Origin: a virus
Strand: one strand, 5' to 3'
IMG/VR virus record: IMGVR_UViG_3300013383_000248
Length of the DNA: 64,000 nucleotides
The translations under genes and the position numbers were made by a program. The notes beneath the pieces were generated by a model that did not search any database, was not told where the DNA came from, and saw only the letters and a list, made by a program, of their open reading frames with translations. This document shows positions 17,409 through 61,104 of this stretch, in pieces; position 1 is the stretch's first letter; each line of letters opens with the position of its first letter.

Positions 17409-17446
17409 AGTAATAGAGATTATTCCTAAATTAAATAGGAATATAT

Positions 17447-17482
17447 AAAGGGTATGAGGATATTCCTCATACCCTTTTTTTA
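17447..17482 (+). terminator. rho-independent terminator (AAAGGGTATGAGGA..TCCTCATACCCTTT + T-tract)
   Basis: Read directly; sits upstream of the tape measure gene. Confidence 0.7.
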
Positions 17483-17519
17483 ATTATATAAATAGGAATT
17501 GAGAGAAAGGAGAAAACAT

Positions 17520-26500: not shown

Positions 26501-27209
26501 TGGATTAGTATATAAAGCATTGAATGATGCTGGAGTTAATGTTCCTATATTAACGGCTGAAGGATATAAACAAATGGCTAAATCTATTAGTTCTGCTAAT
26601 ATCAAACCTGGTGATTTAGTATTTTTTGGAGCTAATGGCGTGGCTGATCATGTAGGAATTTATATGGGCAATGGTTAGATGATAAATGCTACGGGTACTA
26701 AGACTTAGATTACTAGTATAGATTCTAAAAAAGCTGGATTAATTGGTTATGGTCGTATAGGTAATAGTTATTCTTCTAGCGATACTGCTGCTTTGATGGA
26801 TAGACTTGGTTTATCTAGAAGAGGTGGAGCTGCTTCTGGAGCTTATACTGGTGATTGGGGTCCTGGTTAGGGTATAGGTATTGATAATGGAAAAATTATT
26901 AAAGTCCATCCAAAAGAATTGATACTTAATAAATCTGATACTAGAAATATACTTCGTGCAGTTGATATTGTTCGTAATATGAATGATTGGGTAGATAAAC
27001 AAGTTTAGTAGTTATCTAATTTAAGTTCTTCAAAATTAGATAGCTTATATAATTCTGCTATCCCAAGATATGATACTCAACCAATTAAGCAAGAAGTCAC
27101 TATTCAAGCAGATTTCCCAGGAGTTACTGATCATTATGAAATTGAAGAAGCATTGTCTAATCTTAGCAATAATGCTGCTCAATATATAAGTGCGAATAAA
27201 TCTAAATGA
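17520..27209 (+). CDS. giant tail tape measure protein (~3229 aa) with C-terminal NlpC/P60-type peptidase domain
   Basis: A single frame stays open from ATG 17520 to TGA 27207-27209. It includes tracked ORFs 19428, 23586, 25749 and 26424 and ~150 in-frame TAGs; I found no TAA/TGA. It is highly alpha-helical/coiled-coil with a TMP-like core (ANAAGESASKVSDQLTAVWNNF). The C-terminus carries GLDCSGLVYKALNDAG ... VADHVGIYMGNG (NlpC/P60 Cys-His). Confidence 0.65.
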
Positions 27210-30200: not shown

Positions 30201-30473
30201 TATGTTTCTGGATTATATTAGTATGATAGTGATGATATACCTACTAATATTTTACGTGCTGATGGCCTTGTTAGATTAGGTGGAGATAAATTAGTTATTG
30301 ATATAGATGGAAATTTAAAATTAAATGAAGAAACTCCTAGCAATATATTAACTATAGCTAGATTATTGAATGAACTAACTTCTAATTTAGATTTTAAACA
30401 GGAATTAAGTAATAATATAGTTCCACCCCCTTAGAAAAATATTAAAATACGTAATTGGTATATTGAAGAATGA
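27255..30473 (+). CDS. large tail structural protein (~1072 aa; distal tail/baseplate candidate)
   Basis: Tracked ORFs 27255, 28446 and 29673 are in one frame. Codon-by-codon check to TGA at 30471-30473. Confidence 0.6.
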
Positions 30474-30503
30474 TGGATTTTTATCCATCATTCTTTTTTT
30501 TTA
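30466..30503 (+). terminator. rho-independent terminator (GAATGATGGA-TTTTTA-TCCATCATTC + T9)
   Basis: Read directly. Confidence 0.8.
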
Positions 30504-30579
30504 TTTGGACCAAAATAGTATGTTTACAATATATAATTTTTAAAAATAAATAGAAATAAGAGTTAAAGGAGGTCAATAA

Positions 30580-33500
30580 ATGGCAACATCTACAATAAAT
30601 GTAAATAGAGTATATCCGCCTATAGTTAATAGCTCAATTCCAGCATATTTAGCTACTGCGGAATCTTTAAATATAAATTTTTCTTTGCCTAAATCATTGA
30701 ATTATGATGATGTAAAAAATATTTCAATTAAATTTAGCCAATAGTCAAATAATAAAAGTGTAGTTAATACAGATGTTTATTATGATGGAATTATTTATAT
30801 GGAAAAGCCTACTACCTCTACTAATGGAATATATACGGTTACTGTAAAAAATTCGGATATAAAATTAGGAGATACCGTTGGTTGGGTTTCCAATACTTTT
30901 TATAAAATCCAAATCCGTTTTGGATATAGTAAATTAGATTATGAGAAAAACAAAATTGCATTTTTTAAATGGAAAAAAACACAAACATTAATAAATGGAT
31001 TTTCAGAATGGTCTAATGTAATAATTACTAAAGCAATAGAAGAACCTATTGTAAATATTTTAAATAATAGAGAAATAACTAATCTTGATGTTGGTTTTAT
31101 ATTAACCAAAAGTGAAAATGTAGAAACAACAAGATTTCCTAAATTTTAGGGTGGTTATCATTGTGCTGCCGAAGAACCTATGGATAAATATCGTTTTAGA
31201 TTATATGAGGGTTCTTACACTAGTACAAATTAGCCTACAATTGATCCTTATTTGTCTAGCGATTGGTTATAGTTCAATGGTGGCGGCCAAGATTACTATA
31301 CAGGATTGGTTGAATATAGTTTTAATAGATAGTTAGACTATTTGGGCCATAAAACTTATTCAGTAGTTTTAGATGTAATTACTGCTAATGGGTATCAAAA
31401 ATCTTCTGAATTTTATAATTTTACTATTACTGAAAATTATTTAAAATAGCTAGAGTCTTTAGTTTTTATTGTTAAAGATAATAGTGGAGATACTACAATT
31501 TAGCAAAGATTATTTAATACAAACGAAACTAGCTTTGAAACTTATAAAAGTTATTTTAATATTGATGGAGAAAATCCTACATTCATTAGAGGATATTTTA
31601 ATGATTGTATTGAAAATGGAATAAGCTATAAAACTGGCGATATTGTTTATAGAACTGGCACAGTTGGCATAGATGCTAAAGAATATATTTTATCTCGTGA
31701 TACTAGAATTAACGCTGTTGAAAATTTCAGCCATAATATAAGAGCTGATGAAAATGCCAGTTTAGAAATTTATATAAAAAATAATCCCTATAAAGTAACA
31801 GAGCATACTGTTGATACTACTATTACTGGGGATAAAATAGAATATGATAAAGTAGTTTTAAAATATTAGCCTCTTGACGGAACTTTTATTTTATCTAGAG
31901 CTTGTGAAAAAGATAATTATACTTAGTGGGAAGATATAGCTTAGTTTGATTGGTATAATGAATCTAATTATGATAATGAATTAACTTTATTATACGAAGA
32001 TTTTACTGTTGAGAGTGGCGTTAAATACAAATATGCTTTACAGAAAAAAAATGTCGCAGGACTTAGAAGTGCGCCAAAATATGAAGCCTCTGATATTGAT
32101 ACTTCTCCGGCACATTGGTCTAATTTTTAGTATAGCTATATTTATAATAATGGTATTCAAGTTCGTTTAAATTTTGATTGCAAAATAAATAGTTATAAAC
32201 ATACTACTTTATTCCAAAAACAAGATAGTTTAAATTCTAAATACCCTATTATATTACGAAATGGTCTTGCACATTATGCTGAATTTTAGTTAGGAGCTAA
32301 AATTTCTTTGCTTAGTGATGAAGATTCTTCTTTTTTAATGCGTAATGATGCGAAAGGCGGTTATTACCATAGTTGGTATGGTGACATAGTTATCTCAAAA
32401 GATAAATATATAGAGAATTTTACGCGAGATTTACAAGCACCATATAATAATAAATTAACATTGGGGCAATATATAGATATTGATGCTTCAGTTTTTAATA
32501 CTTCTCCTACCAATAATAATATTTATATGGAGCGTATTTATCGTCATTGGGTAGAAGAATTCCTTAATGATGGTGGATATAAATTATTTAAATCAGCTAC
32601 TGAGGGCAATCATATTGTTACATTAACTAATGTCTCTTGGACGCCACAAGCATCTTTGGGAAGAATGATTTATGATTTTAATTCTACTGCATATGAAGTA
32701 GCAGAATTTAATTGTGATAATATTAAATTATATAATATAAATCCTTTAACGACTTTATCTAATAATTCTAAATTAGCTATTCAAGATGCTAATACTAAAA
32801 ATAAAGTAATTATTGGTCAAGTAGCTAGAACATTTAATGGATAGTTAGAGAAAGAAGTAAAAGGTAATTCATTAAAAATTATTTCTAATCCTAAATTTAA
32901 TGAAAAATATGATAACATTTATGAAGCTATTAAATTATAGGAAGAAATTGAAATTAGTGAAGAGAAGAAATACACGTTAATGAAGGTACGAACTATTTGG
33001 GTAGAGCAATATCCTAAATTAAGTTTAAAAAATAGAATTGAATATTTAAAACATCAAAATGGATTATCAATGATAGAACAATTAGAAAATGCAGTTGAAT
33101 TATTACGTTGTGAATAGTTATTAAAAGAGTATGAAAAAAATCAAACTAATATAATAACTATGATAATAAATAATAAAGAAATTTCTATGATGCCTAGCCG
33201 TATATACCATATTGATGATATGAATTTACAATCTATGTATTTAAAATTTACTCGTCCTGTTTTAATAAATTATATTGCTGAAATAGAAGAAGAAGATTAT
33301 TCAGAAATGGTTACAGTGGCTACTCGTGAATTTGTTCAATGGGGACAAATAGGTGGAGTATTTACCGATACTAAAGATATATTAGATAATCATCAATTTT
33401 TCAGAAATGATGATACTAATATTGTTAATGAAAATTATAATTATAGTTTGTACTCTACTCGAAATATTATGGAAGTATTAAAAGAAAAAATACATACTTC

Positions 33501-33999
33501 TATTTTAAATGATTATAGCGGAGAAAAAATAAATTCTTCTTTTGAAATTTTATATAATAAAATAAATGAATTTTTAGATAAAATAGATGATGATACAAAT
33601 TCTATTGAAGATTTATTAATTGAAGGTACTGAATTATTAGAAGAATATCGTCCATTATCAGGATTAGTTTTAAATGATTAGACTGATGCTTGGATGAATG
33701 GTTCTGACCAATTAGTAGTTTATAACTTTAATGGTATAGAAAGCCTTGAAATTGAAGCTGATGCTAATACTGATATTGTTTTTGGTAGAAATAATGAAAT
33801 TGATAGTAGCACTGGTTCTGTTTCTCCGGCGAATGAAGGTAATCATATTCGAGTTGGACCAACAAATAAGATAGTATTAAATCCTTTAAAAAGTACAATT
33901 AAATCATTGGAATTTGCACGTCCATCTTATGCTATCATTAATTATAAAGCTGTTTCTTCTCTAGAATTAAAAGGATATATTAATACAAATGAGGAGTAA
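30580..33999 (+). CDS. large tail structural protein (~1139 aa)
   Basis: AAAGGAGG RBS. Tracked ORFs 30799, 32308, 33160 and 33694 share its frame. Continuous through many TAGs. Confidence 0.6.
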
Positions 34000-34004
34000 G
34001 TAAT

Positions 34005-37000
34005 ATGAGAGAATATCTAACTGATTCAAAATTCTTGTCTATGTTAGATGAGATGCGTATAAAGAAACATTATGCAAAAATTACTATATTATCATTTGTA
34101 GATGAAAAGCCTTTACGAGAAATTCAAGGAATAGCAACAGCTGGCTCTATTACTGTTAATGGGCAAGCAGCATTACGCCGCACAATAAGTTTAACAGTAA
34201 GCGGAGTAGAAAATGAAAATGATATAAATAATATTGAAAATATAATTTCAATAAATAAAAAAGTAAAAATAGAAGTTGGGCTTGAAAATCCATTTGAAGA
34301 TTATAAAAATTATGGAGATATTATTTGGTTTCCTCTTGGAACTTATGTAATTAATCAAGCCACTACTTCTACTACAGCCTCTTCAGCAAATATTTCTATT
34401 TCAGGCAAAGATAAAATGTGTATGCTTGATGGTACTTGCGGAGGTACACTACCTTCAGCAGTTACTTTTCATGAGACGCAATATGAAGATGATAATGGAG
34501 ACATTACAATAGAGCAAGTGCCTATATTTACAATTATTAAAGAATGTGTAACACATTTTGGTAAAGAACCAGAATAGAATGTTATAATTAACGATGTAGA
34601 TATGACCGCAAAACTTAGTACAAAATATATAGGCCAAAATCCTATATGGTTTTCTAAAGATTATAAAAGTTTTGTGATTAGCGAGAATGCTCCTGAAGAT
34701 GAAAATTTTTTACAACATAAATTTATTTATGGATAGGATGTTGGATATCAAGAAACAGATTTTACTTATCCAGGAGAATTAGTGTTTTCTGCTGGAGATA
34801 CAGTAACTTCTGTTCTTGATAAAATTATAGAATCTTTAGGTAATTATGAATATTTTTATGACTTAGATGGGCATTTTGTTTTTTAGCAGAAAAAAAATTA
34901 CTTAAATTATTATTATACTCCAATTACTTAGATTAATGATAATTATTATATAAAAGCTTTTTCTGATAGTAAATATTATTATACTTTTATTGATGCAAAA
35001 GATGCTTTATCTTATTATAACAGTCCTAAATATGAAAATATTAAAAACGATTTTATTGTTTGGGGTGATAAAACCAATAGTAATGGTGTAACTAAAACTA
35101 TTTAGTATCATTTAGCTATTGATGAAAAACCGCAAATTGATTTAGCTAATCAATATATGTGGGATATTATTAGAGGCAATGGTGACCACGCATATTATTT
35201 ATTTGAGTATGAGAAAAATGATTATAATTAGACTCCTGAGTAGAAAGCTATTGAATTAATTTATACTCAAAATCATAATGAAATTACTGATAGTTCAATA
35301 GAAACTGCTATTAAAAAAGATGTAGTAAATAATATTTTACAGAATTATTCTTTTTATAACGGAGATTAGTTTATACTTTATTATAAAGTTACTTTTTCTG
35401 ATTAGATAAGATATTATAAAGTTATATTATTAAATAATGAAATAATTGATTTTGTATATCTTGAGGATTTGACTGATATTATTGATTTTACTCATTTAGC
35501 TTTTGGAGTTTATCCTAAGAAAGACGAAGAAGAGGAAGAAGAAGATAATGATTCTCCAGAAGATGAACCGATAGGTTATCCTGATAATCCAAATCTTCCA
35601 GACATAGACCCTGATTTTGGCATACCTGATTCTTGGGAAAGAAATTCTAATTCTACTAAATCTTAGACTTCGTTAGACCCTGATTTTGGGGCAAATCCAC
35701 AAGATCCTTCAGACGACACTAAAGATGATTCTGAGGATAAAAAAGATGATACTACAAAGGTAAAATATAAAGAATTTTATTTAGTACAAAAAAGAATTAT
35801 AGATAATATAGATGTTTTAGGATATTATAATAAAAAAGGCGAATGGATATAGATTTTTGAATTATCAGAAGGATTAAATTTAACTAATATAAATAATTTA
35901 ATTAATAAAGTAAAATAGAATTATTATTTAAAAATTATAAAAGATATAAATTTTGATGAAATTAATAAAGAGTATGATTTTAATTTTATAAATCAAAATA
36001 ATGTTTTATTAATTTCAAATACTGATTTATTAATCTATAAATTAAATTCTTATGATTCTCAAGGCAATAAAAAAGAATTTAATTATAGTATTCCTAATGA
36101 CTATTCAGAAATAAAAGATTCTGAAGATAAAATATTAATATCTAAAGAAGAACATAAAGAATTAATTAAAGTTTTATTAGAATACTATAAATCAAATAAA
36201 GATGATTTAATTGATGATATTACTTTAATTTATAATTATACTGATATAGATGATATTTCTGATAGTGATTCTTCTGATTCAGATAGTAATAATCCTACCC
36301 CAAGAGACTCTAATAATAATGTTATGCCTTTAGCTACAATTGATCCTGATTTTGAAGTAAATCCTGGAGAGGAAAGTAGCTCAGATACTAGTTCATCTAC
36401 TACTGACAACAAAAAAGGTAGCGATTTGTTATTACCTTTTTTAGATCCAGTAGATGGGAAAAAAGATTAGCTAAAAGTTTTAAAAGATTAGGAAGATATA
36501 ATAAAGAAAATTTTTATTTTACGAGATAATGGGAATTATTCTTTAAATGAAATAATTGAAGAAATAACTAATGCTTATAACTCTAATATCATTGATTTTT
36601 CAATTCTTCCTGAAAAAAGTAAAATTAAAATTATTACTTATATTCCAGAAGAGCCAGAGTTTGATTATGAAGATAATTTTTATTTTACATTAATTGGAAC
36701 TCCTTGCAATGAATGGCGCGAGGAACTATTTAGATAGGCTTTACTAAATAATGAAAATGGCTCTCAAAAGGGAGACTATGATGATGAATTATTAGCTAAA
36801 ATAGATAATGAATATTTATGGCGTAAACAATTATTTGATCCCTAGAATGAAACTTGGCATGAAGAATGGAATAACTAGATTGACTCGGTTAATTTGGATG
36901 AAGAAAAAATAGATACTTGGGATGGATGGAATCCAGCTATTTATATTGATCCTAGTTTAATTACTTATTGGTTAGATTTTATTGATGTTGATTAGTTAGT

Positions 37001-37451
37001 ATCAAAATATTCTGTTAATAAGATAGGCCGGCGCACTAAAGCCTTGACTAAAACTAATATGAGTTTATTATATAAATTAGATGTGCCTGATATTATTTTT
37101 TTTGAAAATACTGGTGAAGCAGATTTAATTTAGAAAATTGAAGAATATACTTTAGAAGGCCAGGCGTATTGTGCCCTAAAACCGGGGCAAATGAAACTAT
37201 TTAGTTCTAGCGGAACAGGTAGTACAGCATTTGATTATATTCGAGAAATGCTTTATTAGTATTTAATTTATAATTTAACTGTTACTATTAATTGTACCCC
37301 AAGGTATTATTTAGAGCCTAATAATTTAATTTATATAGATGATAAAAAAAGTAATATTAAAGGTGAATTTGTTATAACTTAGTACACTCTTCCTTTAACT
37401 TATAATGGAAATATGTCAATTACAACAAATGAAGCCTTAACAAGAGTATAA
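34005..37451 (+). CDS. large tail structural protein (~1148 aa) with acidic/Ser-Asp low complexity and three DPDF(G/E) repeats
   Basis: Tracked ORFs 34005 and 35469 share the frame. Ends TAA inside the AAGGAGG of the next gene. Confidence 0.6.
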
Positions 37452-37461
37452 GGAGGTAACA

Positions 37462-38163
37462 ATGAGTATTGAATTAAAATAGATTGTTTATAATCTTGAA
37501 GATTATGGAGGATCTGGTGGTTTAATCTCTACTAATAAAAATAATCATAATGAATTAATATATAGTATGGTTTATTAGAATAATGAAAATGATTCTACAG
37601 AAACTACTTTAGTTGGCGATTTAGGATTAACTGATTATCTGGAAAATCGTATTAATATTTTTGATAAAAATATTTTAGCAAATTATACTAATGTAAAAAA
37701 AATAGGTATTTAGGCTCCTCCTGGAACTAAATTTACTTTTTCTGAATCAGTTACTCCAAATGCTGGACAATGGTTAATGATAGGTCGTACTGGAATTTAT
37801 GAATTAAATGATGATATAGTAATTAAATCATTACGATTTCAACATCCTAAAAATTATATTTTAAATAAAGAATTAAGTTAGGAATTATAGTCTAATGGAA
37901 CAGCAATTATGAAACAGGCTAGAGATGAATTTTTAACTAAAGTAACTGAGTTAACTAAAAGCCAAGGGACAGTCCCAGATCGAACTGAAACTGGTAATGA
38001 CTATTGGATATAGTATAATAATCTCCATTAGCAATACGTTACTAAATACAGAAGCGGTTTAGGCTTATATTTAAAAGGCAAAGCTGGAGTTTATGTTGAT
38101 GGTTCTGAAGATGATTTATATAATATTATTATTGATTTTACTTATGGAGAAGAGGAGGGATAA
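37462..38163 (+). CDS. hypothetical tail protein (~233 aa)
   Basis: AAGGAGG RBS; continuous through TAGs; TAA at 38161-38163. Confidence 0.5.
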
Positions 38164-38166
38164 TTA

Positions 38167-40818
38167 ATGTATAGTTTTTATGGCGGACAAAAAGGTTAGG
38201 ATTTTAAAATAACAAGAATATTTTCTAACCGAGCAATAGATATGGTTGGAGATTTATAGATGCGTTGGACTTCACCAGTAAATGTAGGAGATTATATATT
38301 TATTAATTATGGTGATCCTTCATTTATGAATGAAGAAACTTCTAACTATAATACCAATTTATAGATAGATTTAAAAGCCAGCGGTAAATCTTTTACTAAT
38401 TCATTATGGCAAAAAATTTATGTAGATAGAAATTTAACAATTTCTCCTGAGTTCCCTGAGAATGATAATAATATTTATGTTTTCTTAAATTTAGATGAAA
38501 GTAATACTGAGGAATACGGTAATTCTTTATAGGAAGTATCAGATATTGAAAGCGAAGAATGTTTTGGGTTTGGATATAGATTAATTGCTTGTGTAACTGG
38601 TGTTACTCCTCGAATTTAGGTATTCCATTAGACAATAGATATTGAAGATGGAGATCCTTATGTTACTTTAAATTTAACTAACCCTGATACTCCTAAAATT
38701 AAATTTTATTTACAACGTGGATAGTGCATTGAAGATGTTTATAGAAATATTGTAGGATCTTAGGAAGAACCTAATGCTTATTTATACACTGATGGTAGAA
38801 CTTATATAGATAAAAATGGTGAAACAAAAACAGCCACTTTAACTAAGCCTTAGTTGATATTTGATTTGCCAAAGGCCCCTACGTTTTATTATGGTATGTT
38901 ATTTGGTACAGGTCCTTTAAATTTTTATCATAATTTTGGTACTTTATCTAGTAGAGAATATTATTTAAACAATGATACATATAAGATTTATAAGAAAGAA
39001 ATACAGTTAATAACCAGAATTAGTGATTTTTTACATAGAATTTTATTAAATGATGCTGTAACTTATACTTTAGATGAAAGCTCTAAAGATAAAGATACTG
39101 GTATTTATAGTAATCTTCAATTTGATGATATAAAACATTTTTATTATATTGTAAATAATAATTTTTTTAAAGAAGGCAGTAATTTAAATAGATCATTTAT
39201 ATACGTTCAAGAAGAAGACAAAAATGTTATTTTTAATCCATTGTCTAATAAAAATGATGAAGTGACAAAAAATAATGAGAAAAAAATTTTAAAATTATAT
39301 AAAGAATTAAAAAATGATTATCATTTATCTGTACGTCCTTATGAACGTTATAAAGAAGATGGTTCAAAAGAGTTAATTCCTTAGTATATGTGGACAAATG
39401 ATGATGCCACTGAAGAAGTTAATACTTATTTATTATCATCTTCTATTTTCAAATCCTTCCCTAATTCGTTATATCCTTTAGGAATTATAATAAATGATTT
39501 AATAGAAAAATTATTTAGTATTATTGTAGAAGATGAAAATGGAAATCCTTCAATAAAAGAAAATTACATTACTTCTGATGTATCTTATTCTTTTGAAACT
39601 TATAATACTGCTGATTATTTAATTGGAGTATTAGCACAAGGTTCTTATTTAAATGAACATTATTATGATGTATCAAAAGCTTATAAAGCTGATTTTTATG
39701 TTAATGAACCTACTGGTAAATTTTATATTTTAACAAATATAAATGAAATTTATATTGAAGGAAAATATATCGGAGCTATTACCGCCCCTGCTCCTATTGC
39801 TACGACCCAAATGACTTCTAGTTTTTATTTTGATAAAAAGGAACAAAAATATGTAAAAAATCAAAATAAAGTTATTAGTAGTTTAACTGAAGGTATGGGA
39901 GAAAATATTTATCAAGAAGAATTCTTATTTAAATTAGTAAATGATCCTATTACCTTGACAAAAATAAAATAGGTTGTTAATGACGCAGATTTTACAATCG
40001 GAAAACCTATTCCTTAGAATGAAAATGAATAGTTAGTAAACATAGAAGCTCCTATGCCTATCCATGTATTTACTCCAGGGAGTAGTGGATTAAGTGTTTT
40101 AAATAATAAAGTAATATGGAATTCTACTAATTATGAAGGACCATTATTTTCTAAAGGAGATCTATTTTTCAATATAACACGATTAGAGGATAATAATGCT
40201 AACCGTGGTGATGTTTATAGATATAATTAGCTTCCTACAAATACAATCGAAGAATAGAAAGCTATTTTAAAAGATACAATGACTAATAGTTGGGAATTAG
40301 TTGGGAATATAAAAGGTATTCCAGGTATTCCTAATCCTACTAAAATTGTAAATATTACTTTAATTCCTACAACAAATCAAAGTGATAATTTTAAAATAAC
40401 TTATTTAGGCAGTAGTAATACTAGTACTTTTAATTATAAGATAAATAAATCTCCTAATAATGGAGCAGAAGTTAATCCAACTCCAACATTAATGGCTATA
40501 ATTCAAAATATAATTAATGGTAATAATATTTCAGTATCAAATAATGAATTAATTTTACCTGATTTATTAGTAGATACTAATAATGGAGAAATTTTATTAA
40601 TAAATTACTTTGCTTCAGAAAATTCTACCCCTGAAAGTTATTGGGGAATTTATACTAATAATTCTTGGAATATAATGTCTTTCTCAGGTGGCGGGTCTTC
40701 ATTCTTAAATGATTAGCCTAATAAATTAACGGAATAGCATAAACAATAGGGTTATTCAGTTGATTATTTAGAAACAAAATTTTTAAATAGCCATTTAATC
40801 TGGCATGATTGGGATTAA
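38167..40818 (+). CDS. tail fiber / receptor-binding-like protein (~883 aa), Asn/Ser-rich C-terminal region
   Basis: Tracked ORFs 38854, 39388 and 40279 share the frame from ATG 38167. TAA at 40816-40818. Confidence 0.55.
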
Positions 40819-40831
40819 GGAGGAATTTTAA

Positions 40832-41239
40832 ATGGATGCTCAATTAGTAGCGCAAATATTTCAAATTTGTATTATTCCTTTACTTGGAATTTTAACAACG
40901 TTTTTAATTACTTGGATTAAATCTAAGAAAGATGCTTTAAAACAACAAACAGATAGTGAATTAGCTAAGAAATATTTGGATATGCTTGATAATACAATTA
41001 CTGACTGTGTTATTGCAATGAATCAGACTTATGTTAATTCATTAAAACAACAAGGTAAATTTGATAGTGAAGCACAAAAGAAAGCTTTTACTGATGTATA
41101 CAATAAAGTAATTGCTATTCTTGGCCAAGATGCTATTGAATATTTAAATTCGGCTATTGGAGATTTAAATGAATATATTACTTCTAAAATTGAAAAAGAA
41201 GTCAGCTCAAATAAAATTACTCCAACAGAAGAAAAATAA
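40832..41239 (+). CDS. holin, LL-H family-like (135 aa; one N-terminal transmembrane helix)
   Basis: Tracked intact ORF. N-terminal hydrophobic helix followed by a KKYLDMLDN...EAQKKAFTDVYNKVIAILG...IEKE pattern recalled from the LL-H holin family. Confidence 0.65.
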   Translation: MDAQLVAQIFQICIIPLLGILTTFLITWIKSKKDALKQQTDSELAKKYLDMLDNTITDCVIAMNQTYVNSLKQQGKFDSEAQKKAFTDVYNKVIAILGQDAIEYLNSAIGDLNEYITSKIEKEVSSNKITPTEEK

Positions 41240-41244
41240 TAAAA

Positions 41245-41279
41245 TGGGAGAACCAAATGCGGTTCTCCCATTTTTTTTA
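41245..41279 (+). terminator. rho-independent terminator (TGGGAGAACC-AAATGC-GGTTCTCCCA + T8)
   Basis: Read directly. Confidence 0.85.
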
Positions 41280-41306
41280 TGCTTATTTATTATAATAAAA
41301 TGCCCT

Positions 41307-41348
41307 AAATAATTTCCCAAAATTTTTGACAAAATTGGGAAATTATTT
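41307..41348. promoter_or_regulatory. 14-bp perfect inverted repeat (AAATAATTTCCCAA / TTGGGAAATTATTT) flanking a TTGACA; candidate operator over a -35 element
   Basis: Read directly. A second TTGACA lies at 41347-41352. No clean -10 identified. Confidence 0.4.
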
Positions 41349-41401
41349 GACAATAATTTTTATATAACTATGGAAAGAATAAATAAGAAAGGATTTTAGT
41401 T

Positions 41402-41833
41402 ATGAATTTATATCAAGGTTTTGGAAATAACCAAAGTTATTATCAACCACAAAGAACAAATACAATTGCACCACCGATCCAATAGCCATAGGCTTTTATC
41501 GGATTAAAAGGTCGGCCAGTTTCTTCATTAGAAGAGGCTCGTGCGGCTGCTATTGATTTTGATGGTTCTGTATTTTTCTTTCCTGATTTGGCTAATAAAA
41601 GGATTTATACCAAACAAATTAATTTAGATGGAACGGCATCTATGAATATGTATGAGTATAAAGAAGTTCCTACTGAAGCTTTTAATTCATCTAATTTCGT
41701 CACTCGTTAGGAATTTGATGAAACTTTAAATGATATTAAAGGGGCTTTAAACATGATAGCTTAGTAGACTTAGCAATAGATACAATAGTCAAAGCCAGAA
41801 GAGCAGCAACCTAAGCCGCAAATTAATTTTTAA
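41402..41833 (+). CDS. hypothetical protein (~143 aa) with Gln-rich C-terminus largely encoded by TAG codons
   Basis: The stretch ...IAQQTQQQIQQSK... uses TAG for 6 of its 8 Gln, interleaved with CAA. Ends TAA inside TTTTAAGGAG. Confidence 0.5.
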
Positions 41834-41846
41834 GGAGTAATGGAAT

Positions 41847-42083
41847 ATGCAAATGAATCCTATACAGATTATTCAAATGATAAAAGGTGGGTCTAATCCT
41901 CAACAGTTAATGATGTCATTTTTATAGCAATAGAATAATCCAATGGCTAATAATTTGTTATAGATGGCTCAAAATGGAAATATCGGTGGAATTGAATAGG
42001 TAGCACGAAATATGTGTGCATAGAAAGGATTAGACTTTGATAAAGAATTTAGTTCCTTTAAGCAATAGCTAGGAATTAAATAA
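41847..42083 (+). CDS. small Gln/Asn/Met-rich protein (~78 aa)
   Basis: GGAG 9 nt upstream of the ATG; 7 in-frame TAGs; TAA at 42081-42083. Confidence 0.4.
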
Positions 42084-42110
42084 TATATTTTATTAAAGGA
42101 GGACATTTTT

Positions 42111-42216
42111 ATGTTCAACACAAGCAATGGTTATAGTTTAGCTGATATTGCCGCAGCCACAGGCGGCAATGGATACCATAATGGTGATGATGGTATGTGG
42201 GGTAATGGCGCATGGT
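42111..42216 (+). CDS. exon 1 of a Gly/Asn/Trp-rich late protein (MFNTSNGYSLADIAAATGGNGYHNGDDGMWGNGAW)
   Basis: AAAGGAGG RBS. The ORF hits TAA exactly where a GC-rich structured insert begins. Confidence 0.6.
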
Positions 42217-42485
42217 AAGGTAAAATCTGCCATGGATAAATCGCGGAATTAAGCGGGAAAGCTGAAATGCTAATCCGAACCGAAGGCTAGGTTTAACCTA
42301 GTCAGGGGCAACGCATAGATGGTGAAAAGATATAATCCATCCACGAGGCCGCGACATTTATTTAATAAATGAAAAGATATGCTGAACTAATACGAATAAG
42401 TAAGTATTAGAACTATAAGACAAAAAACTTATAGGATAACATAATGGGATAATTATTTTATTCCTTTTCTGCTTCAATGGATGGG
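42217..42485 (+). mobile_element. ORF-less group I intron (~270 nt; 3' splice site uncertain, 42485 or 42494)
   Basis: A GC-rich island in a 30% GC genome. Exon end CATGGT (42211-42216) pairs with intron GCCATG (42229-42234), giving a U.G pair at the splice site (P1). An in-frame stop sits at the first intron codon. Splicing after a G at 42485 or 42494 restores the frame into the downstream ORF. Confidence 0.6.
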
Positions 42486-43201
42486 GCGGAAATGGTTGGG
42501 GTAATGGTGCCAATGGTGCTGGTTATCAGGGAACTACAACAAGAGAAGAATTAACTTATGGCTTTGATATGAGTGATATTAAGTCCGGCATTAATTCTTT
42601 ACAAACTGGTTTATGCAATGGCTTTGCTGGTGTTAATAATAATTTATTAACTGGCTTTGCTGGCATCACTGAAACTTTAAATGGTAATGCTCGTAGTTTA
42701 CAATCTGATATTTGCAATATGGGTATGACTAATATGTAGAATACCTTTGGTATCACTCAGGCTATTAATGCTGATACAGTTGCTAATATGCAGAATACTA
42801 ATGCTCTTTCTCAATAGTTAAATAATATGGCTGCAACAAATGCCTAGTGTTGTTGTGAGAACAAAAATCTTATTACGTCAAGCTTTGCAGATTTAAATTA
42901 TAATCTTGCTACTGAAGCTTGCCAGAATCGTCAAGCAGTTAACTAGGGTGTAAGAGATATCATTGACAATACTAATGCTAGTATGCGTTCTATCCTTGAT
43001 TTCTTAGTCCAGGATAAGATTGATACTCTTACTGCTGAAAATACTAGTCTTAAGGGCCAGATTTCTTAGAACTTGCAGAATGCTTATTTGGTAGAACAAC
43101 TTTCTCCTAAAGCACAGCCTGCTTATATTGTTGCTAACCCTTATACTGGCAATACCTATACTACTTATGGCTGTGGATATGGCTGTGGTTGCAATTCTTA
43201 A
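42486..43201 (+). CDS. exon 2 of the same protein (GNGWGNGANGAGYQGTT...; Asn/Gln-rich; C-terminal YGCGYGCGCNS)
   Basis: Frame mod 3 = 2, continuous to TAA at 43199-43201, with several TAG(Q) codons. Composition matches exon 1. Confidence 0.6.
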
Positions 43202-43221
43202 TAAGAAAAGAGGAAAAATAA

Positions 43222-43641
43222 ATGGAAATAACAGCTAATGCTTTACAAACGGTAAATGCCAATAGTAATGTAGTGTTTACTAATACCGCTGTTCCAGGTA
43301 GTTGTGCGATGGTGCATCGTGAAGGAAGTGGATTAGTAACTTTACGTGGTATGACTAATCAATGCAGAGCTAGATTTAGAGTAACCTTTGGAGCGAATGT
43401 CGCACTTCCAACAGGTGCTACAGTAGCTCCTATTTCTTTAGCAATAGCTATAAATGGTGAACCCGTTGCTGAAACTACTATGATTTCAACGCCTGCGGCA
43501 GTTGAAGAATTTAATAGTATTTCTCGTGCCTTATTTTTGAATGTCCCTTCTGGATGTTGCCAATAGATAAGCGTAGAAAATACTAGTGCTTCTGCTATTA
43601 GTGTTGAAAATGCCAGTCTTATTATAGAAAGGGTGGCTTGA
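43222..43641 (+). CDS. hypothetical structural protein (~139 aa), high GC, beta-rich
   Basis: Tracked ORF 43222..43566 plus a TAG-readthrough extension to TGA at 43639-43641. Confidence 0.5.
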
Positions 43642-43700
43642 TTACAATGGAGAAATTATGTTAGATTAAGGATACTTTAATAACTTTAGTCGAATAGCAA

Positions 43701-44198
43701 ATGGCTAATCCTCAATGTGTAAATACACATGAAATGGGAGAAGTTATTGATATGATTAAAGATTTGGCCGAAGCCTGTTATTATGGGTCAGTCGTAGATG
43801 CTATGTTGGAAAATAAGGAAGAGGAAGAAATTTATGGTATTGGTATGATGAAAGACCCTCATAAACGCAAGAATCCATATCCTTATTATGTAAATGGGGA
43901 TTATCGTGAAGATAAATATTATACCAAAGATTACGATGGTGGATACAATGGATACAGTTATACAGGCACAGGCGGAATGAATGATGATAATAAAAAAATG
44001 GGCCATAGCCCAATGAAACGTAAATCCTATATCGAGAGTAAGGAACGTCATATGGACTAGGCCCTGTAGATGAGAGAGTTAGAAGATTATGCACAAGTTC
44101 TAACCTCTGATCTTATGGAAATGATTCAGGATGCAACTCCTGAAGAAAAACAATTATTACAAAGAAAGATAGCTACATTGGCTACGAAGATTGTATAA
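43701..44198 (+). CDS. hypothetical protein (~165 aa)
   Basis: Tracked ORF 43701..44060, extended through one TAG to TAA at 44196-44198. Confidence 0.5.
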
Positions 44199-50407: not shown

Positions 50408-50992
50408 TTAATCATTCTTGCCTAATTCGGCATACCAAAAATGGTCTGTGATTTCAGCTACAATATTTTTTAAATCATTTCTATCTTCATTTACAAATAT
50501 TTTTACATCATTAAATTTTATATTATTAAAATCTTGTTCATCAGCCGCATAACGTCTAATAATTTCTGGAACGTTGGGTGATTCTTCTCTATTCAGTTGA
50601 CGTAATAATCTTTGTTCATCTGAAGCTACAATACCATAAATCTTTAAATCAATTTCTGGAAACGCAGATAAAGCTTTAATTCCAGAAGGATTAAAGATAC
50701 CGATATTAAGTTTATTCTTTCTTAAACAGTTAATACCAGTTCCATACCACCAATTATTAAATTGAACATATTCCAGCATTTGATGATTATCTATCATTTG
50801 TTTAAATTCATTTTCAGTAACAAAATAATAATCTTTTCCTTCAACTTCTCCTTCACGGCCCGGACGAGTAGTGTAAGAAACTATAGAATGAACTATAGGA
50901 TTATTTAATTTTTCTATTTCCTTTAATATGGTGTCTTTGCCTGAACCGGCTTTACCCACTAAGGCGATTAATTTATATTTTTTATTCTTCAT
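50408..50992 (-). CDS. gmk: guanylate kinase-like (194 aa)
   Basis: Tracked ORF with a GKAGSGKDT P-loop and the YTTRPGREGEVEGKDYYFV motif. Confidence 0.8.
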   Translation of the reverse strand: MKNKKYKLIALVGKAGSGKDTILKEIEKLNNPIVHSIVSYTTRPGREGEVEGKDYYFVTENEFKQMIDNHQMLEYVQFNNWWYGTGINCLRKNKLNIGIFNPSGIKALSAFPEIDLKIYGIVASDEQRLLRQLNREESPNVPEIIRRYAADEQDFNNIKFNDVKIFVNEDRNDLKNIVAEITDHFWYAELGKND

Positions 50993-52443
50993 CTTCAGCT
51001 TCTCCTTGGGAACGGTTATTTCTTAATACTAAATCACCATTAGATTGAATTCCATCAATGTGATAAAGTTGATGTCCGGCTGTTGATGCATACTTCTTAA
51101 CAATAAAATCATCTCCAGAACGGATGCCTTGGACTACAATCATATTACCGCGATTAAACCAAGATTTTTCAATAATTTTTTTAGTTCCATCAGGTTGTTT
51201 TTGAGAAATTTGTTTGTCAAACAATGTAAAATATTCTTTTCTGAACTTTACATTTACTACTCCTGTTGGAGTAAGAATAGTTACAATACTCTTATTCTTA
51301 TTTTTAGCGATACAAGTGCCGCACAACTTAGAAAGATAATAAATATTTATTGTTTTTCCAGCCTTAATAAAGCTTCTTTCTACGACTGGGTCTTCTGGAA
51401 GTTTATAGAAATCAACAAATCCATATTTACCTTGATTAACTTTTGCTAATTCATGTTCGTGGTAATAGAAACATAATACTTCCATTTCCCACGCAGAATA
51501 ATTTACTTTAGGACAATATTTATCCCAATCCATTTTAAATACAATTTCATTTAATTTATTTAAAATTTCTTCTTTATTATCAGCAATTTGTTTACGATAA
51601 ACATCCATCCATCCTTGGTAAACCTTATCATTCCAATCCTTAATATTTAAAAAGAAATTAGAATTATTGCTTTGGATTAAGTCATCTTTATCAATCTTTT
51701 GTAAAAATCCAATAGCTCTTTCATCTAGTTTATAATTAACTTTATCATATTTACAAATTTGTTTTAAATAACGAGTAAATTCATAAATATGTAAAGCCTG
51801 TTGTCTTTCATCTGTATCTGCTGGAAGAAGATTTAATTTCATTAAAGTAGCTAAATTTTGAAGATTAAGATTTTTCTTTTTATCACAAGTTTCCCAAATA
51901 TACCAAGCCATACAAAGTTTTCTATCCATCATATGGTCAAAAGCCCCACCCTTGATAAGAGAAATCATAGCTTGTTTATTAGGATTAACTTTATTTAAGA
52001 AATCTCTAGGAGAGATATAAGGTCTGTTATCAATAATTGTGCGAACTACATCATCACCAACATTTAGCATACCTTTTAAGCCGAACAGAATTTGATTATT
52101 TTCAACATCAGGGATAAAACTAAATTCTGATTTATTAATATCAGCAAGACTTACTTTAATACCAGCCTTACGAATATCACCAATGGCCTTAGCAATTTTT
52201 CCATAGTCAGTAGAATTAGTTTTTCTTACCTTAGATTTTTTATCAGGTAAATCTTCAAAAGTAACTCCGTTAGCTAAATCATCAGCTTCTGGATCATAAA
52301 TATCTACTATTTCTTCTTCACTATTATCTTCTAAAGAACCACTATTGACAATTAAACAAGCACAATTCCAGTAGATAGGATTGTAATGAATAACAAAATA
52401 AATCATTTGAATAGCTACAAATGAATAAGGGAGTGAGTGATTA
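50982..52443 (-). CDS. dnaE: DNA polymerase III alpha subunit (DnaE), exon 2 (C-terminal ~486 aa)
   Basis: Begins ...NHSLPYSFVAIQMIYFVIHYNPIYW, aligning with E. coli DnaE ...[24 protein letters not shown]. No ATG or RBS of its own. TAA at 50982-50984. Confidence 0.85.
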
Positions 52444-53626
52444 CGTATACTCTGACTATTTCTTACGGACTTTGTAGTGAAAGTGGTAAATTTTCTCGTC
52501 CGCACACCATTTCCAACAACGTGTCAATAGTTGTTGTACTCCAAGTCTAACCTTGGATAGTCGATACAATAGATTAAAAATAAAGTTATTTTTTCCTTAA
52601 AGGATAATTTAAATTATCTTTTTTATGAGAGCGGCCAGTATTTATATTGGTTACTGTAGATCTTGATTTATTATATTTTTTAGCAATTTCATTTTGAGTT
52701 AAATTAGTATTTAATAAATCATTAATAATTTTATTAACCCAAATTTCATTAGCTTTTTTGTTACATCCTTTTATATATAAAGGATAAGTTTCATTTTTAT
52801 CAAAAAAATATCTACCACTATTAATACCAGAAATAAAACCAATACTTTTAATATTAAAATCTTTTGCTATTGTTTTATAAATTTCTCCAGACTTTATTCT
52901 ATCTTTAATTTGTTTTATTTCTTCTTTAGAGAAATGGCTTCTATTTATTTCTTTTTTTAAAGGATAATCAAATAAAGGATTTTTAAAATTTAACCCGCTA
53001 TTAATATTTATAAGATATGAATACTTTAAACGTGGAGAATATTTTTTTAAAATTTCATTAAAATCTTTATTGGCTATTAATAAATTCTGTATATTAATAA
53101 TTTCATTTCCAGTAAATAGTTTTGAAGATTGTAATTTTTCTTTATAAGTTTTTTCCTTCGGAGAAAATCCTTGTCCTCCTTGAGAAACATTATATCCATT
53201 TAAAGAAATTAAACTTTGATATTGTTCTATATAATATTTTTCTTTATCATCTATATAATTTTGGTCTTTACTATCATCAATTTCTTCTAATATAATAAAA
53301 TCAAAATTATTTAATCCATATTTTCTAATAGCATTATGGAATGGTATATTATAATCATTTGATTTAGGATTAAAAGAACAACTTTTATGTCCATTTTTTC
53401 TTTTTTGGATATTATTTGTTTGACCAATATAAATCTTCCCATTTATTTTATTTTCGTATTTATATATATATTTCATTTTTGCACCTCCTTATAATCTATT
53501 TCTACTTTTAATCTATCACGAGATTTTACCCTCGTTAGCAATTAATTTTATAATACTACCAATATTATAATGTAAATTAATTACCCCTATGACGAATAGG
53601 TTAAGTGTGTAAGCCCCAATCTCTCA
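52444..53626 (-). mobile_element. group I intron (~1183 nt) in dnaE carrying a GIY-YIG homing endonuclease gene
   Basis: Exon 1 ends ...AGCCU (53627) and pairs with intron GGGCU (P1, U.G at the splice site). The intron ends in a G at 52444. Splicing gives GYAFS-L-NHSLPYSF, collinear with E. coli [14 protein letters not shown]. Intron flanks are GC-rich and structured; the homing endonuclease gene has its own AAGGAGG RBS. Confidence 0.7.
52586..53476 (-). CDS. GIY-YIG homing endonuclease (296 aa), intron-encoded
   Basis: Tracked ORF: MKYIYKYENKINGKIYIGQTNNIQKRKNGHKS.... C-terminal NUMOD/HTH-like repeats. No TAG codons. Confidence 0.85.
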   Translation of the reverse strand: MKYIYKYENKINGKIYIGQTNNIQKRKNGHKSCSFNPKSNDYNIPFHNAIRKYGLNNFDFIILEEIDDSKDQNYIDDKEKYYIEQYQSLISLNGYNVSQGGQGFSPKEKTYKEKLQSSKLFTGNEIINIQNLLIANKDFNEILKKYSPRLKYSYLININSGLNFKNPLFDYPLKKEINRSHFSKEEIKQIKDRIKSGEIYKTIAKDFNIKSIGFISGINSGRYFFDKNETYPLYIKGCNKKANEIWVNKIINDLLNTNLTQNEIAKKYNKSRSTVTNINTGRSHKKDNLNYPLRKK

Positions 53627-56169
53627 AGGCTAAAAGCATATCCTAACTGCGGTGCTACTGCTGTTTCCCAAAAATATTCTGCATCACTTTTATTATTAAA
53701 ACGACTAAATACCTGTTCCTTTAATTGAGGAATCTTAGCCATTTGTTTTTTAGCAACAACTTTACGTGCTGAGTTAGCTTCACCTAATGTAAAATGAGCT
53801 ATATCCATAAGGATTTCCATCATTTGTTCTTGTAAAGGGCAACAACCATAATATTTATCACAGTGTTTATGAAATTTATTAATAAGTTCTTGAGGCAAAT
53901 GATGTTGTTTCATTTCTTGATCAAAGGCTTGGATACCTTGGTGTTGAATTCGATAAAATCTATCTTGTTGTGATTCTTTACCTTTTTCAGACATAAGACG
54001 CATCATAGCATTAGCCGCAGTCATTTCCATAGGGTCTTGCGGTTTTAGTTTTTTGGCAATAGCTAATCCTACACCAGTAGAAAACTGGAAACAGTCTAAT
54101 ACATCGCCTGCTGCAAGATGGTCCCAAATATTTTGGTCTTTTGTATCTATTACTTCTGGATGAATATATTGATTATAAAATTCTCTTAAAGATAAATCAG
54201 GAATTTCTTTTGCCTTTAATAGTAATTCATAACAAGTAATAATCTTGTCAGAAGCTTCAGTCACAAGGAAATCATATTTAGTATCTCCAGCTGCTTCCGC
54301 CTGATGCAAATCCCAGCAAGTAATTAAATTACCACTAGGCGTTCTCATAAATGCTGCTGTATCATAAGGATCATCCCCATAAAGAATAACGCCAGAAGCG
54401 TGAGAAGAACGTTTATTAACAATACCGCCAATATAAATAATTATATCAAGAAGTCCTGGATATTCATTTACTTTATTAATAAATGTTTTAACAGGCTTTC
54501 TATCTTTGGCTTCATTACCATAAATAACATCGTCAATTTCCCATAAGAATCCACGTTCTTGCGGGATAAGAGAAGACATATACTGTGCTTCATCTACGTC
54601 AATACCATTTGGATATTCTTCTGACCTATAACCACGACAAGCAGTGAGAATAGCAGATTTAGTAGTTTCAGTGCCAAAGGTAGCAACCTGAATTAATCCT
54701 AATTCTCCACGTTCTTTGCGAATAGCTTCAAAAATTGCAGGACGTTTTGAAGGAGCTAAGTCAATATCAATATCAGGTAATTCAGCACGTTCTTTGTTTA
54801 AAAAACGCCAATAAGGGAGACCCCATCTTATAGGATCAAGCTGAGTGATACCTAATAAATAGTTAGATAAAAAACCAGTGGCCGAACCACGCCCTGGACC
54901 TACTATAGAGCCGCAATTCCAAAACAAATCAATATAATGTTTAAAAGTATTAAAGTAAGCAAAAAGGCAATCATCTAATTTTTCACCAATATCTTTTATA
55001 ATATCAGCTTCAATTTCAAGACGATTTAAATATATATCAAGTTTATCTTCAGAGATACTTTTATTATACATCTTTTCCAATAAAGACATATAACATTCAT
55101 TAACCCAATAACGTTCTTGAGGATTATCACTCATTAATAAACTACATAAAATAGGATATTGTTCTTCACGTTCACCATACCATCCAGCCAATGATTGAGG
55201 ATAATCTGTTACTTCTACTTTTGGAATTATTTGTTTTCTTTCAAGAGAGAAATCTTCAATTTTATTTTGAATTTCAAGAGTATTATTTAAAATTTCTTTA
55301 GCTATTTCTTCTGGCTGTTCTTCTATGTCTAAATATATAAAACAAGGTTCAATTAATTTAAAAACTTCATCATAAGTCATTAAATGAGCGAACTCATAGA
55401 ATTTATCAACTTCTCGTTCACCGTCTTTTGAATTAAGATAAGCTTTATGAATTGGTCTATCTTCTTTAGTTAGATAATGACTGTCTGTAGCAACTTCTAC
55501 TTTAATTCCATATTTACGGCCAATTTTATAAATCATATGATTTACAAGTTTTTGGTCTGCCGCTGTTGATGGTGCAATCTCTAAATAAAAATCTTCATCA
55601 AATAAATCTTGGCAAAAAGTAAGAAAAGTATCTATTTGTTTTAATGTTTGATATAATTCATATTTATTTTCTTGTTCTTGGTATTCTACTGCTTTTAATA
55701 AACAAGTTCCTAACTCTCCACCAATACAAGCAGTAGTAGCGATTAGATGTCCTTTATATTTTTCTACTATTGGCTTTAATTCACTCTTTAAAAGTGGAAC
55801 TCGTTCCATTTTTCTATCAACATATAAATTTTGCCAAGCAATTGAACTTAATTCTTTTAATGCTCGATAGCCTATAGCATCTTTAGCAATTAAAATAAAA
55901 TGATAATATTTTTGTCCTGTACTTCTATCATCAGTTAAATAAATTTCATTACCTAATGCTATTTTAAAATCTGGATATTTTTCTTTAATTTTTTTAGCAT
56001 ATTGATTTACTGTCATATGTGCAGAAAGACTTTCGTGGTCTGTAATAGCGATTCCCGAAAGTCCTAATTCAATAGCCTTATCAATTAAAGTTTCTGGTTT
56101 ATTTATGCAATCAAGTAAACGGAGGTTCGAATAATCAGTATGATTATGGCAACCAAAATAAGTACTCAA
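53627..56169 (-). CDS. dnaE: DNA polymerase III alpha subunit (DnaE), exon 1 (N-terminal ~847 aa; PHP, palm, fingers)
   Basis: TTG start 7 nt after GGAGG. N-terminal PHP motif HNHTDYS. The tracked ORF 53587..56169 runs 13 codons into the intron. Confidence 0.85.
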
Positions 56170-61091: not shown

Positions 61092-61104
61092 ATATACTTA
61101 CTCC

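Follow-up and report, generated by a model that had tools for sequence, protein, structure and literature searches.

A probable phage-type group I intron without an endonuclease gene in a TAG-recoded late gene for a predicted membrane protein

Introduction

The td and nrdB introns of phage T4 are classical group I introns of bacteriophages and belong to subgroup IA2. The T4 introns carry endonuclease open reading frames (ORFs) in P6a, and td has both P7.1 and P7.2 between P7 and P3′, the pair of helices that defines IA2. In td, a stop codon at the exon end probably protects the intron fold from translating ribosomes. In phage Twort, the orf142 intron I2 is a ribozyme of subgroup IA2 with a solved crystal structure; a P2 helix is present in the published structure. 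Here, we describe a 230-nucleotide (nt) insertion at positions 42217–42446 of a 64,000-nt stretch (the window) of IMG/VR virus record IMGVR_UViG_3300013383_000248, a gut phage with TAG read as sense, where it divides a late gene. We regard it as very probable that this insertion is a phage-type, IA-like group I intron lacking an endonuclease gene and that its host is a TAG-recoded late membrane-protein gene. In gut phages with stop-codon recoding in late genes, self-splicing group I introns have been described as interrupting core genes (Yutin et al. 2021, PMC7886860; Borges et al. 2021, 10.1101/2021.08.26.457843). Yutin et al. (PMC7886860) identified introns mainly through endonuclease protein domains, and because such a search relies on those domains, an ORF-less copy like the one studied here would be missed by it.

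Results

An earlier reading of this DNA, made from its letters alone (the sequence-only reading), proposed a small ORF-less group I intron in a late gene for a Gly/Asn/Trp-rich protein. The strings that it quoted are present in the window, and the proposal is borne out by junction-spanning homologues, a covarying core, and a covariance-model match to Twort introns.

The insertion lies on the + strand between two coding segments. Exon 1 (42111–42216) comprises 35 codons (MFNTSNGYSLADIAAATGGNGYHNGDDGMWGNGAW) and the first base (T) of a Trp junction codon, as judged from the ORF list, the N-termini of homologues, and intron-less alleles. Read on without interruption, the ATG-initiated ORF extends to 42218 and ends at TAA (42216–42218). 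The sequence-only reading also had exon 1 stop at this TAA; the codon is present, but the numbering was one base off, T42216 being both the last base of the exon and the first base of the stop. The intron (42217–42446) starts with AAGGUAAAAUCU, ends with GAUAACAUAAUG, and contains no ORF of at least 30 amino acids (aa) lying wholly within it on the + strand. Exon 2 (42447–43201) begins with GG, which finishes the Trp codon, and continues as IIILFLFCFNGWGGNGWGNGANGAGYQ to TAA at 43199–43201. This frame is open from 42443 when TAG is read as sense; five in-frame TAG codons, taken as Gln, fall within exon 2. Joining 42111–42216 to 42447–43201 gives a 286-aa ORF in which the transmembrane segment is restored and whose product is collinear with uninterrupted homologues (protein alignment A1). 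The predicted spliced junction RNA reads GCAUGGU followed by GGAUAAUU; the spliced 34-mer is GGTAATGGCGCATGGTGGATAATTATTTTATTCC and its unspliced counterpart is GGCGCATGGTAAGGTAAAATCTGCC.

A protein search that used the join of the sequence-only reading as the query recovered 4573 homologues. More than 100 of the best of these are uninterrupted proteins of 270–295 aa that cover 93–100% of the query, so the junction-spanning homologues looked for were found, with the 3′ exon boundary corrected to 42447. At the junction they read GAWWIIILFLFCFNGWGG, within the wider context GAWWIIILFLFCFNGWGGNGWGN, and between GNGAW and GNGWGN every full-length homologue in alignment A1 has WIIILFLFCFNGWG(G), a segment that the window encodes at 42447–42487. 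At the DNA level, intron-less alleles of closely related phages (L010–L013) run from GCATGGT directly into GGATAATT, or in longer context from GGTGCATGGT into GGATAATTATT. The window has GGCGCATGGT at the same site, then AAGGTAAAA and further sequence to CATAATG, and only then GGATAATTATT, amounting to exactly 230 extra bases. Because uninterrupted homologues and intron-less alleles read across the site, the last base of exon 1 is T42216, the last base of the intron is G42446, and the junction codon encodes Trp (T then GG). There is no positional ambiguity.

The same evidence bears on whether two independent genes are merely separated here by a structured intergenic RNA, such as a riboswitch-like element or a small RNA. 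Exon 1 does have its own start and stop, an ATG-initiated ORF (42569–43201) lies downstream, and Rfam finds no group I intron. However, the thousands of homologues, where inspected, are single proteins across the joined sequence, and the two parts are fused with nothing between them in closely related phages. The downstream frame is open and homologous from 42447, which is 122 nt ahead of its first ATG (42569), and the RNA topology described below is that of a group I pseudoknot and not of any riboswitch. We consider the two-gene arrangement extremely unlikely.

A different delimitation of the intron fares no better. The sequence-only reading described an insert of about 270 nt, spliced after G42485 or G42494 with a Cys codon at the junction; a G stands at both positions, and both restore the frame. 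Yet stretch 42447–42485, thereby placed in the intron, is exon sequence coding for (W)IIILFLFCFNGWG, and the proposed 3′ end is misplaced by 39 bases relative to the end set by the intron-less alleles, whose DNA runs into GGATAATTATT straight after GCATGGT. Either acceptor would therefore yield a protein without the conserved transmembrane segment WIIILFLFCFNGW(GGN), a stretch shared by all full-length homologues. In addition, the conserved 3′ tail of the intron family, GAUAACAnnnnG, ends at 42446 in the window, and the guide for the 3′ exon pairs with 42447–42450. We give these acceptors virtually no weight. A third candidate, 42500, likewise restores the frame with a Cys junction and is ruled out, with the other two, by the homologue alignment. 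The higher G+C content claimed for the insert applies to its 5′ two thirds but not to its AT-rich 3′ third (G+C 0.26–0.32): values are 0.46–0.50 across 42150–42349 and about 0.42 in the Gly-rich exon ends, versus 0.26–0.35 in most flanking windows (about 0.3).

Both exon ends pair with the intron. P1 (42211–42234) consists of the exon end CAUGGU (42211–42216) and the internal guide GCCAUG (42229–42234), forming 6 base pairs (bp) around the loop AAGGUAAAAUCU, and a U42216·G42229 wobble closes it at the 5′ splice site. This is the 5′ splice site and pairing that the sequence-only reading had recognized, and P1 is found in the sequence, in the minimum free energy (MFE) fold, and by covariation. 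Three other alleles of the host gene have GCU rather than GCA as the Ala codon preceding the junction. The guide tracks this synonymous change, since alleles L138 and L140, with exon GCU-UGG-U (CUUGGU), carry the guide GCCAAG in place of GCCAUG. Allele L137, which has a P2 hairpin, retains a 4-bp P1 with the guide GCCA. Directly 5′ of the P1 guide, AUCU (42225–42228) is complementary to GGAU of exon 2 (42447–42450), forming P10. Both strands are kept in all four diverged alleles compared, so that P10 is invariant and shows no covariation. The intron terminates in a guanosine (ωG, G42446), whose position is fixed by the intron-less alleles. In all four diverged alleles the intron likewise ends in G, followed by exon GGAU, with the G kept in L137, L138, and L140.

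The first coding segment ends directly in a stop codon and the second lies in a different frame, an arrangement that would also suit ribosomal bypassing or frameshifting over the gap rather than RNA splicing. The bypassed gap of T4 gene 60 is 50 nt. The gap here is 230 nt; its group I fold covaries and includes guides that pair with both exon ends. As is typical of introns, a homing endonuclease gene is present in sister copies. The probability that translation skips this gap appears negligible.

The secondary structure was written by hand from the window sequence and then tested on an alignment (A4) of 25 diverse compact relatives, 24 from IMG/VR and one from Listeria phage LIS04. Elements occur in the order P1-P3-P4-P5-P6-P6a-P7-P7.1-P3′-P8-P7′-P9-P9.1-tail GAUAACAUAAUG. 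The P3 and P7 strands interleave (P3 5′, P7 5′, P3 3′, P7 3′), giving the conserved P3–P9 core with a P4–P6 domain and a pseudoknot. Over the 26 sequences scored, standard pairs are formed by 94.0% of alignment cells, compared with 72% in column shuffles and 31–42% when the 3′ partners are slid by 1–3 columns. Both sides have changed in 40 of the 55 modelled pairs, and the covariation score is 0.584 versus 0.177 in shuffles, with none of 500 shuffles reaching the observed values. Compensatory changes occur in each of P3, P4/P5, P6/P6a, P7.1, P8, P9, and P9.1, and all 55 pairs are standard in the window copy. Folding of the intron region gives an MFE of −59.2 kcal/mol (z = −4.4; none of 200 shuffles folds as well), and this fold independently recovers P1, P4/P5, P6a, P7.1, P8, P9, and P9.1.

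The P3 5′ strand UCGCGG (42241–42246), followed by J3/4 AAUUAA, pairs with 42349–42354 (97.4% of cells paired; both-side changes in 5 of 6 pairs). P4 (42254–42257/42274–42277) encloses P5 (42260–42262/42269–42271; loop UGAAAU), and this stretch, 42254–42277, corresponds to the classical P and Q elements AAGCGGGAAAG and AAUCCGAAC; the P4/P5 helix is 95% paired, with double changes in 4 of 7 pairs. P6 (42280–42281/42305–42306) and its P6a hairpin (42285–42292/42296–42303) are 100% and 96% paired, respectively, 8 of their 9 pairs showing double changes, and in the near-identical allele L005 one P6a G-C pair is swapped for A-U. The P7 5′ strand (42311–42317), A(C)GCAUA with C42312 bulged, lies inside the R-like element GCAACGCAUAGA and pairs with UAUGCU (42378–42383). 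A42311-U42383, the bulged C42312, and G42313-C42382 have, on paper, the canonical geometry of a guanosine site, with G42313-C42382 as the candidate guanosine-binding pair. Both P7 strands were fixed by the retrieval pattern and filter, which makes this helix invariant in A4. A diverged relative in Exiguobacterium phage EauM-23 (EauM23) has GACUA/UAGUC where the window has GCAUA/UAUGC, amounting to two compensatory changes.

Between P7 and P3′, where additional helices are a mark of phage-type introns of subgroup IA, lies the P7.1 hairpin (42318–42341; GAUGG/CCAUC, loop UGAAAAGAUAUAAU), which is 100% paired, with double changes in 3 of 5 pairs. Many relatives have an extra hairpin nested within its loop. 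The joiner CACGAGG and the P3 3′ strand CCGCGA (42349–42354) follow at 42342–42354; CCACGAG is invariant in the intron family, an invariance partly fixed by the retrieval pattern. P8 (42355–42371; CAUUUAU-UUA-AUAAAUG) has a 3-nt loop and is 80% paired, all 7 pairs showing double changes. J8/7 AAAAGA and the P7 3′ strand UAUGCU occupy 42372–42383, an S-like element (AAGAUAUGCU) that is read from the sequence and invariant in A4. P9 (42387–42393/42404–42410) and P9.1 (42413–42419/42428–42434; loop ACAAAAAA), which together span 42387–42434, are 91% and 96% paired, with double changes in 12 of 14 pairs.

Two short strings recur in or around this structure. An 11-nt string, UGAAAAGAUAU, occurs twice in the intron, at 42323–42333 in the P7.1 loop and at 42370–42380, where it covers the last P8 pair, J8/7, and the start of P7′. 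The loop copy (within UGAAAAGAUAUAAU) is kept in many family members without the nested hairpin, and the repeat may reflect a tertiary contact, alternative pairing, or duplication. The second string, UAGUCAG, had been put forward as common to this insert and the introns of two replication genes in the window. It is present at 42299–42305, but it is not a homologous element: here it forms the 3′ strand of P6a/P6, whereas in the two replication-gene introns it forms the P7 3′ strand (AGAUAUAGUCAG or AAAUAGUCAG), for which the equivalent in the studied intron is AGAUAUGCUG. Nor is it enriched in the window (8 matches versus 5.4 expected; 20 of 100 shuffles reach 8). UAGUCAG was rejected as a common intron signature on both grounds.

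Related introns occur in other phages and, in several forms, at this same site. A megablast search with 27255–44198 against a phage collection gave no match. Blastn in its "distant" mode finds that 42228–42433 resembles intervening sequences of unrelated phages at 70–83% identity. In Listeria phage LIS04, the intervening sequence lies beside an endonuclease gene and upstream of the terminase; in EauM-23, it comes after the terminase and an HNH gene follows; in bajarodcaudo virus 1, it splits the major capsid gene and has an "intron associated endonuclease"; and in Clostridioides difficile phage phiCDIF1296T, it separates the two parts of a tail or tape-measure gene. Annotated family members sit in genes for terminase, major capsid, and tape-measure proteins. 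A single degenerate core pattern, CAACGCATAGA-N15-45-CCACGAG, matches at least 120 loci in IMG/VR, and family members there split other phage genes as well.

Among the 120 homologue clusters listed for the host protein, about 15 are fragments of 207–220 aa that start with MSDIKSG, at the first ATG 3′ of the intron (42569), and all five fragment clusters inspected carry an intron at the same site. P0034 (99% identity to the query; identities here are local BLASTP values) has the same ORF-less intron on at least 24 contigs. P0101 (60%) has an ORF-less form, and P0067 (64%) an ORF-less form with a P2 hairpin. The introns of P0041 (92%) and P0044 (86%; locus L141) carry HNH_3 ORFs of 154 and 159 aa, respectively, in the P8 loop. 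In L141, P8 consists of CAUUUAUUUG, the HNH ORF, and CAAAUAAAUG, at the same place as P8 of the window. The co-occurrence of empty, endonuclease-bearing, and endonuclease-less alleles at one conserved site is the standard pattern of a homing intron family. Because sister phages show no intron, an ORF-less intron, or an HNH-ORF intron here, the window copy is most simply the endonuclease-less form of a mobile intron. It encodes no homing endonuclease, whereas its sisters L140 and L141 carry the HNH_3 ORF in P8, and it is therefore not autonomously mobile. The HNH_3 ORF of L141 (838–1317) itself has in-frame TAGs (for example, at 929–931, 1034–1036, and 1100–1102), so the mobile element's own endonuclease gene appears to use the phage's alternative code. 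A recoded intron endonuclease was noted by Borges et al. (10.1101/2021.08.26.457843), and the L141 ORF echoes that observation.

The alleles also speak to the possibility that this intron is group I by descent but no longer splices, leaving a pseudogene or fragments, namely a 35-aa peptide and a product from the ATG at 42569. The missing endonuclease ORF would be one stage in the known cycle of gain, degeneration, and loss, and public gene calls give only a 210-aa fragment (P0034). However, every core helix is intact, with all modelled pairs standard and the top family-model score. P1, P10, the splice-site U·G, and the terminal G are all kept, and the frame that splicing would restore is open in both exons. 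At least 24 contigs carry near-identical introns, and the intron is also found in alleles whose proteins are 60–64% identical, with compensatory changes. Decay thus seems improbable, and an intact intron remains the favored interpretation.

A covariance model (R1) was built from A4, with P7 left unpaired because pseudoknots cannot be modelled; its E-values are rough, coming from a shortened calibration. R1 gives the window intron 224.8 bits, the top score, and its relatives in annotated phages 96–170 bits. Homology to experimentally proven group I ribozymes is detectable, since R1 also matches two of the three Twort orf142 introns across model positions 1–224: 17019–17243 (42.1 bits, E = 5.5e-9) and 17296–17552 (25.1 bits, E = 8.9e-5). 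These two score 97–101 bits with RF00028, the Rfam group I model. On the whole window, R1 finds no second family member; weak matches at 30470–30517, 54469–54569, and 52010–52123 (E = 0.05–0.9) were treated as noise.

Several points weigh against the assignment. Splicing is a prediction from sequence. The covariation alignment was retrieved with a core sequence pattern and so samples one clade only; it is invariant at P7 by construction, and support for that helix rests on the one diverged relative, EauM23. R1 does not match the T4 td and nrdB region (L015). There is no P2, and only one P7.1 stands where classical IA2 introns have P7.1 and P7.2. The covarying extra helix at 42318–42341 is a single hairpin to which relatives add a nested rather than a second hairpin, closer to P7.1/P7.1a, and its subgroup is best described as IA-like only. 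Finally, Rfam returned no group I match for the whole window at the gathering score, for 42000–42700 at E ≤ 10, or for four related loci at E ≤ 1. The sequence-only reading had held that a missing group I core by covariance model would count against it, and the scan formally gives that outcome, the intron failing to reach the 50-bit gathering score of RF00028. This negative reflects a gap in the sensitivity of RF00028, because the T4 controls (L015, 134000–146000) also fall below that score (td, 40.3 bits; nrdB, 35.7 bits). The Twort orf142 introns (L136, 16000–20000) pass it at 64–101 bits. Since td and nrdB score below the gathering score, default Rfam annotation would miss textbook phage group I introns. 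A negative from RF00028 thus tells of the limits of model coverage and counts only weakly against phage IA introns; the studied clade is further from RF00028 than the T4 introns are.

The host gene is predicted to be a late, TAG-recoded gene for a membrane-anchored protein of 286 aa. Its spliced product matches phrog_16490, a family with no assigned function (E = 7.5e-37; the only PHROGs match), and Pfam gives nothing significant for it. The protein combines a short N-terminal part and a single hydrophobic segment (WWIIILFLFCF), which the intron splits at its first codon, with a linker rich in Gly, Asn, and Trp, a long region rich in Gln and Asn that includes a CCC motif, and a C-terminus rich in Cys. 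A holin-family gene (40832–41239, + strand; phrog_13712, E = 2.6e-28) lies three genes upstream, and no endolysin was found among the few neighbors scanned. The two small genes between the holin and the host gene (41402–41833 and 41847–42083) are TAG-rich and have no assigned function.

The intron-bearing gene lies near the end of a TAG-rich late block. TAG reassignment extends over the window as a whole: reading through TAG doubles the coverage by ORFs of at least 100 codons from 34 to 70 kb and gives an orderly + strand late block at 161–44198. The ORF at 17520–27209 (3229 aa) contains 115 in-frame TAGs; most − strand genes of the replication side contain 0–4, although 59351–61093 has 11. 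ARAGORN finds no tRNA in the window and hence no suppressor tRNA. Contigs with the same host gene reach 184–187 kb. The large terminase is nearest those of large Bacillota phages (Geobacillus virus E3 and Enterococcus phages; 44–47% identity), and one unannotated human fecal contig has a terminase of 62% identity. A crAss-like affiliation, prompted by the TAG recoding, the 3229-aa ORF, and contigs of about 185 kb, was dropped, as the terminase points to large Bacillota phages.

Two further regions on the − strand contain group I-like elements. A DNA polymerase III alpha-like gene (region 50982–56016) is split into 56016–53581 and 52406–50982 by about 1.2 kb. The gap holds a GIY-YIG homing endonuclease ORF (53476–52586; phrog_7168, E = 8e-38) and td-type group I-like 3′ elements, GUAUCGACUAUCC and AAAUAGUCAGAG, at about 52565–52450; neither Rfam at E ≤ 1 nor R1 matches this region. 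The gap at 61455–61566, between ORFs 62282–61566 and 61455–61105, contains a compact td-like group I 3′ core with the elements GUAUCGACUAUCC (R-like), CAACUAUAAUUAGUAGUUG (P8-like), and GAAGAUAUAGUCAGU (S-like), in which UAGUCAG serves as the P7 3′ strand. The gap probably holds a third intron or its 3′ portion. The other introns of the window are of this different, td-like type.

Discussion

Our analysis allows us to propose how the intron would be removed. The pre-mRNA would fold such that the exon end CAUGGU pairs with the guide GCCAUG, and free guanosine bound in P7 would attack after U42216. The adjacent guide AUCU would then align GGAU of exon 2 as P10, with G42446 taking the place of the guanosine. 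This two-step transesterification would join U42216 to G42447 (GCA UGG UGG AUA AUU), restoring Trp-Trp and the transmembrane segment WWIIILFLFCF. In unspliced RNA, translation would stop at the UAA formed by the final base of exon 1 and the first two bases of the intron, leaving a 35-aa peptide only. A stop at this position may halt ribosomes at the exon end, much as the td stop probably does. Self-splicing and catalytic activity are predicted by analogy with characterized group I introns. What is new is this intron itself, a genuine, well-preserved, ORF-less group I intron that is an ordinary example of a well-known phage kind.

The main value of the finding lies in annotation; the understanding of how group I introns work is unchanged. 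Public annotation gives a 35-aa ORF and a 207–220-aa fragment (e.g., P0034), whereas splicing would yield the 286-aa membrane protein. As ORF-less introns of this clade are invisible to RF00028 and to endonuclease-domain searches, gut phages with alternative codes probably have a higher intron density than present estimates suggest. R1 together with the core pattern is a practical route to finding them. A broader reading, which we consider rather unlikely, is that the intron represents a distinct, abundant clade of phage IA-like introns outside current curated models and that, given its place at the start of the transmembrane segment of a protein encoded three genes past the holin, splicing could add a layer of timing or quality control to late expression atop TAG recoding. 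The clade would be marked by P7 GCAUA/UAUGC, a single P7.1 with a loop, UGAAAAGAUAUAAU, in which the J8/7-P7′ sequence UGAAAAGAUAU recurs, the invariant CCACGAG joiner, and, often, the absence of P2.

Compared with the stop-recoding phages of Yutin et al. and Borges et al., the phage studied here is not evidently crAss-like. The same-site HNH introns (L140/L141) share the insertion site GCxTGGT...GGAT, the core, and the P1 and P10 guides, and R1 scores them at 127–133 bits in the 5′ part and 61–62 bits in the 3′ part. They differ in carrying a 154–159-aa PF13392 (HNH_3) ORF with in-frame TAGs in the P8 loop, which is only 3 nt long in the window copy. The T4 td intron resembles the studied intron in its U·G in P1, its terminal G, its A-C(bulge)-G at J6/7-P7 (td AACGACUAU), its insertion between P7 and P3′, and its identical 3′ end AACAUAAUG. 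By contrast, td and nrdB carry endonuclease ORFs, lie in nucleotide-metabolism genes, and are not matched by R1.

A close likeness in kind is to the Twort orf142 introns I2 and I3, which are also small, ORF-less, located in a phage late or structural gene, and aligned end to end by R1. They differ from the studied intron in P7 (GACUA/UAGUC versus GCAUA/UAUGC), in their RF00028 scores (97–101 bits versus no score), in having P2, and in the P7–P3′ interval, which is about 26–68 nt with P7.1 and P7.2 in Twort versus a single 24-nt P7.1 hairpin here. Both nevertheless follow a common order: P3; P4–P6; an R-like GCAACG-N-UA; additional helices in the P7–P3′ interval; P8; a J8/7 rich in purines that ends in AUA ahead of the P7 3′ strand; P9; P9.1; and a tail of UAACAUAAU-G.

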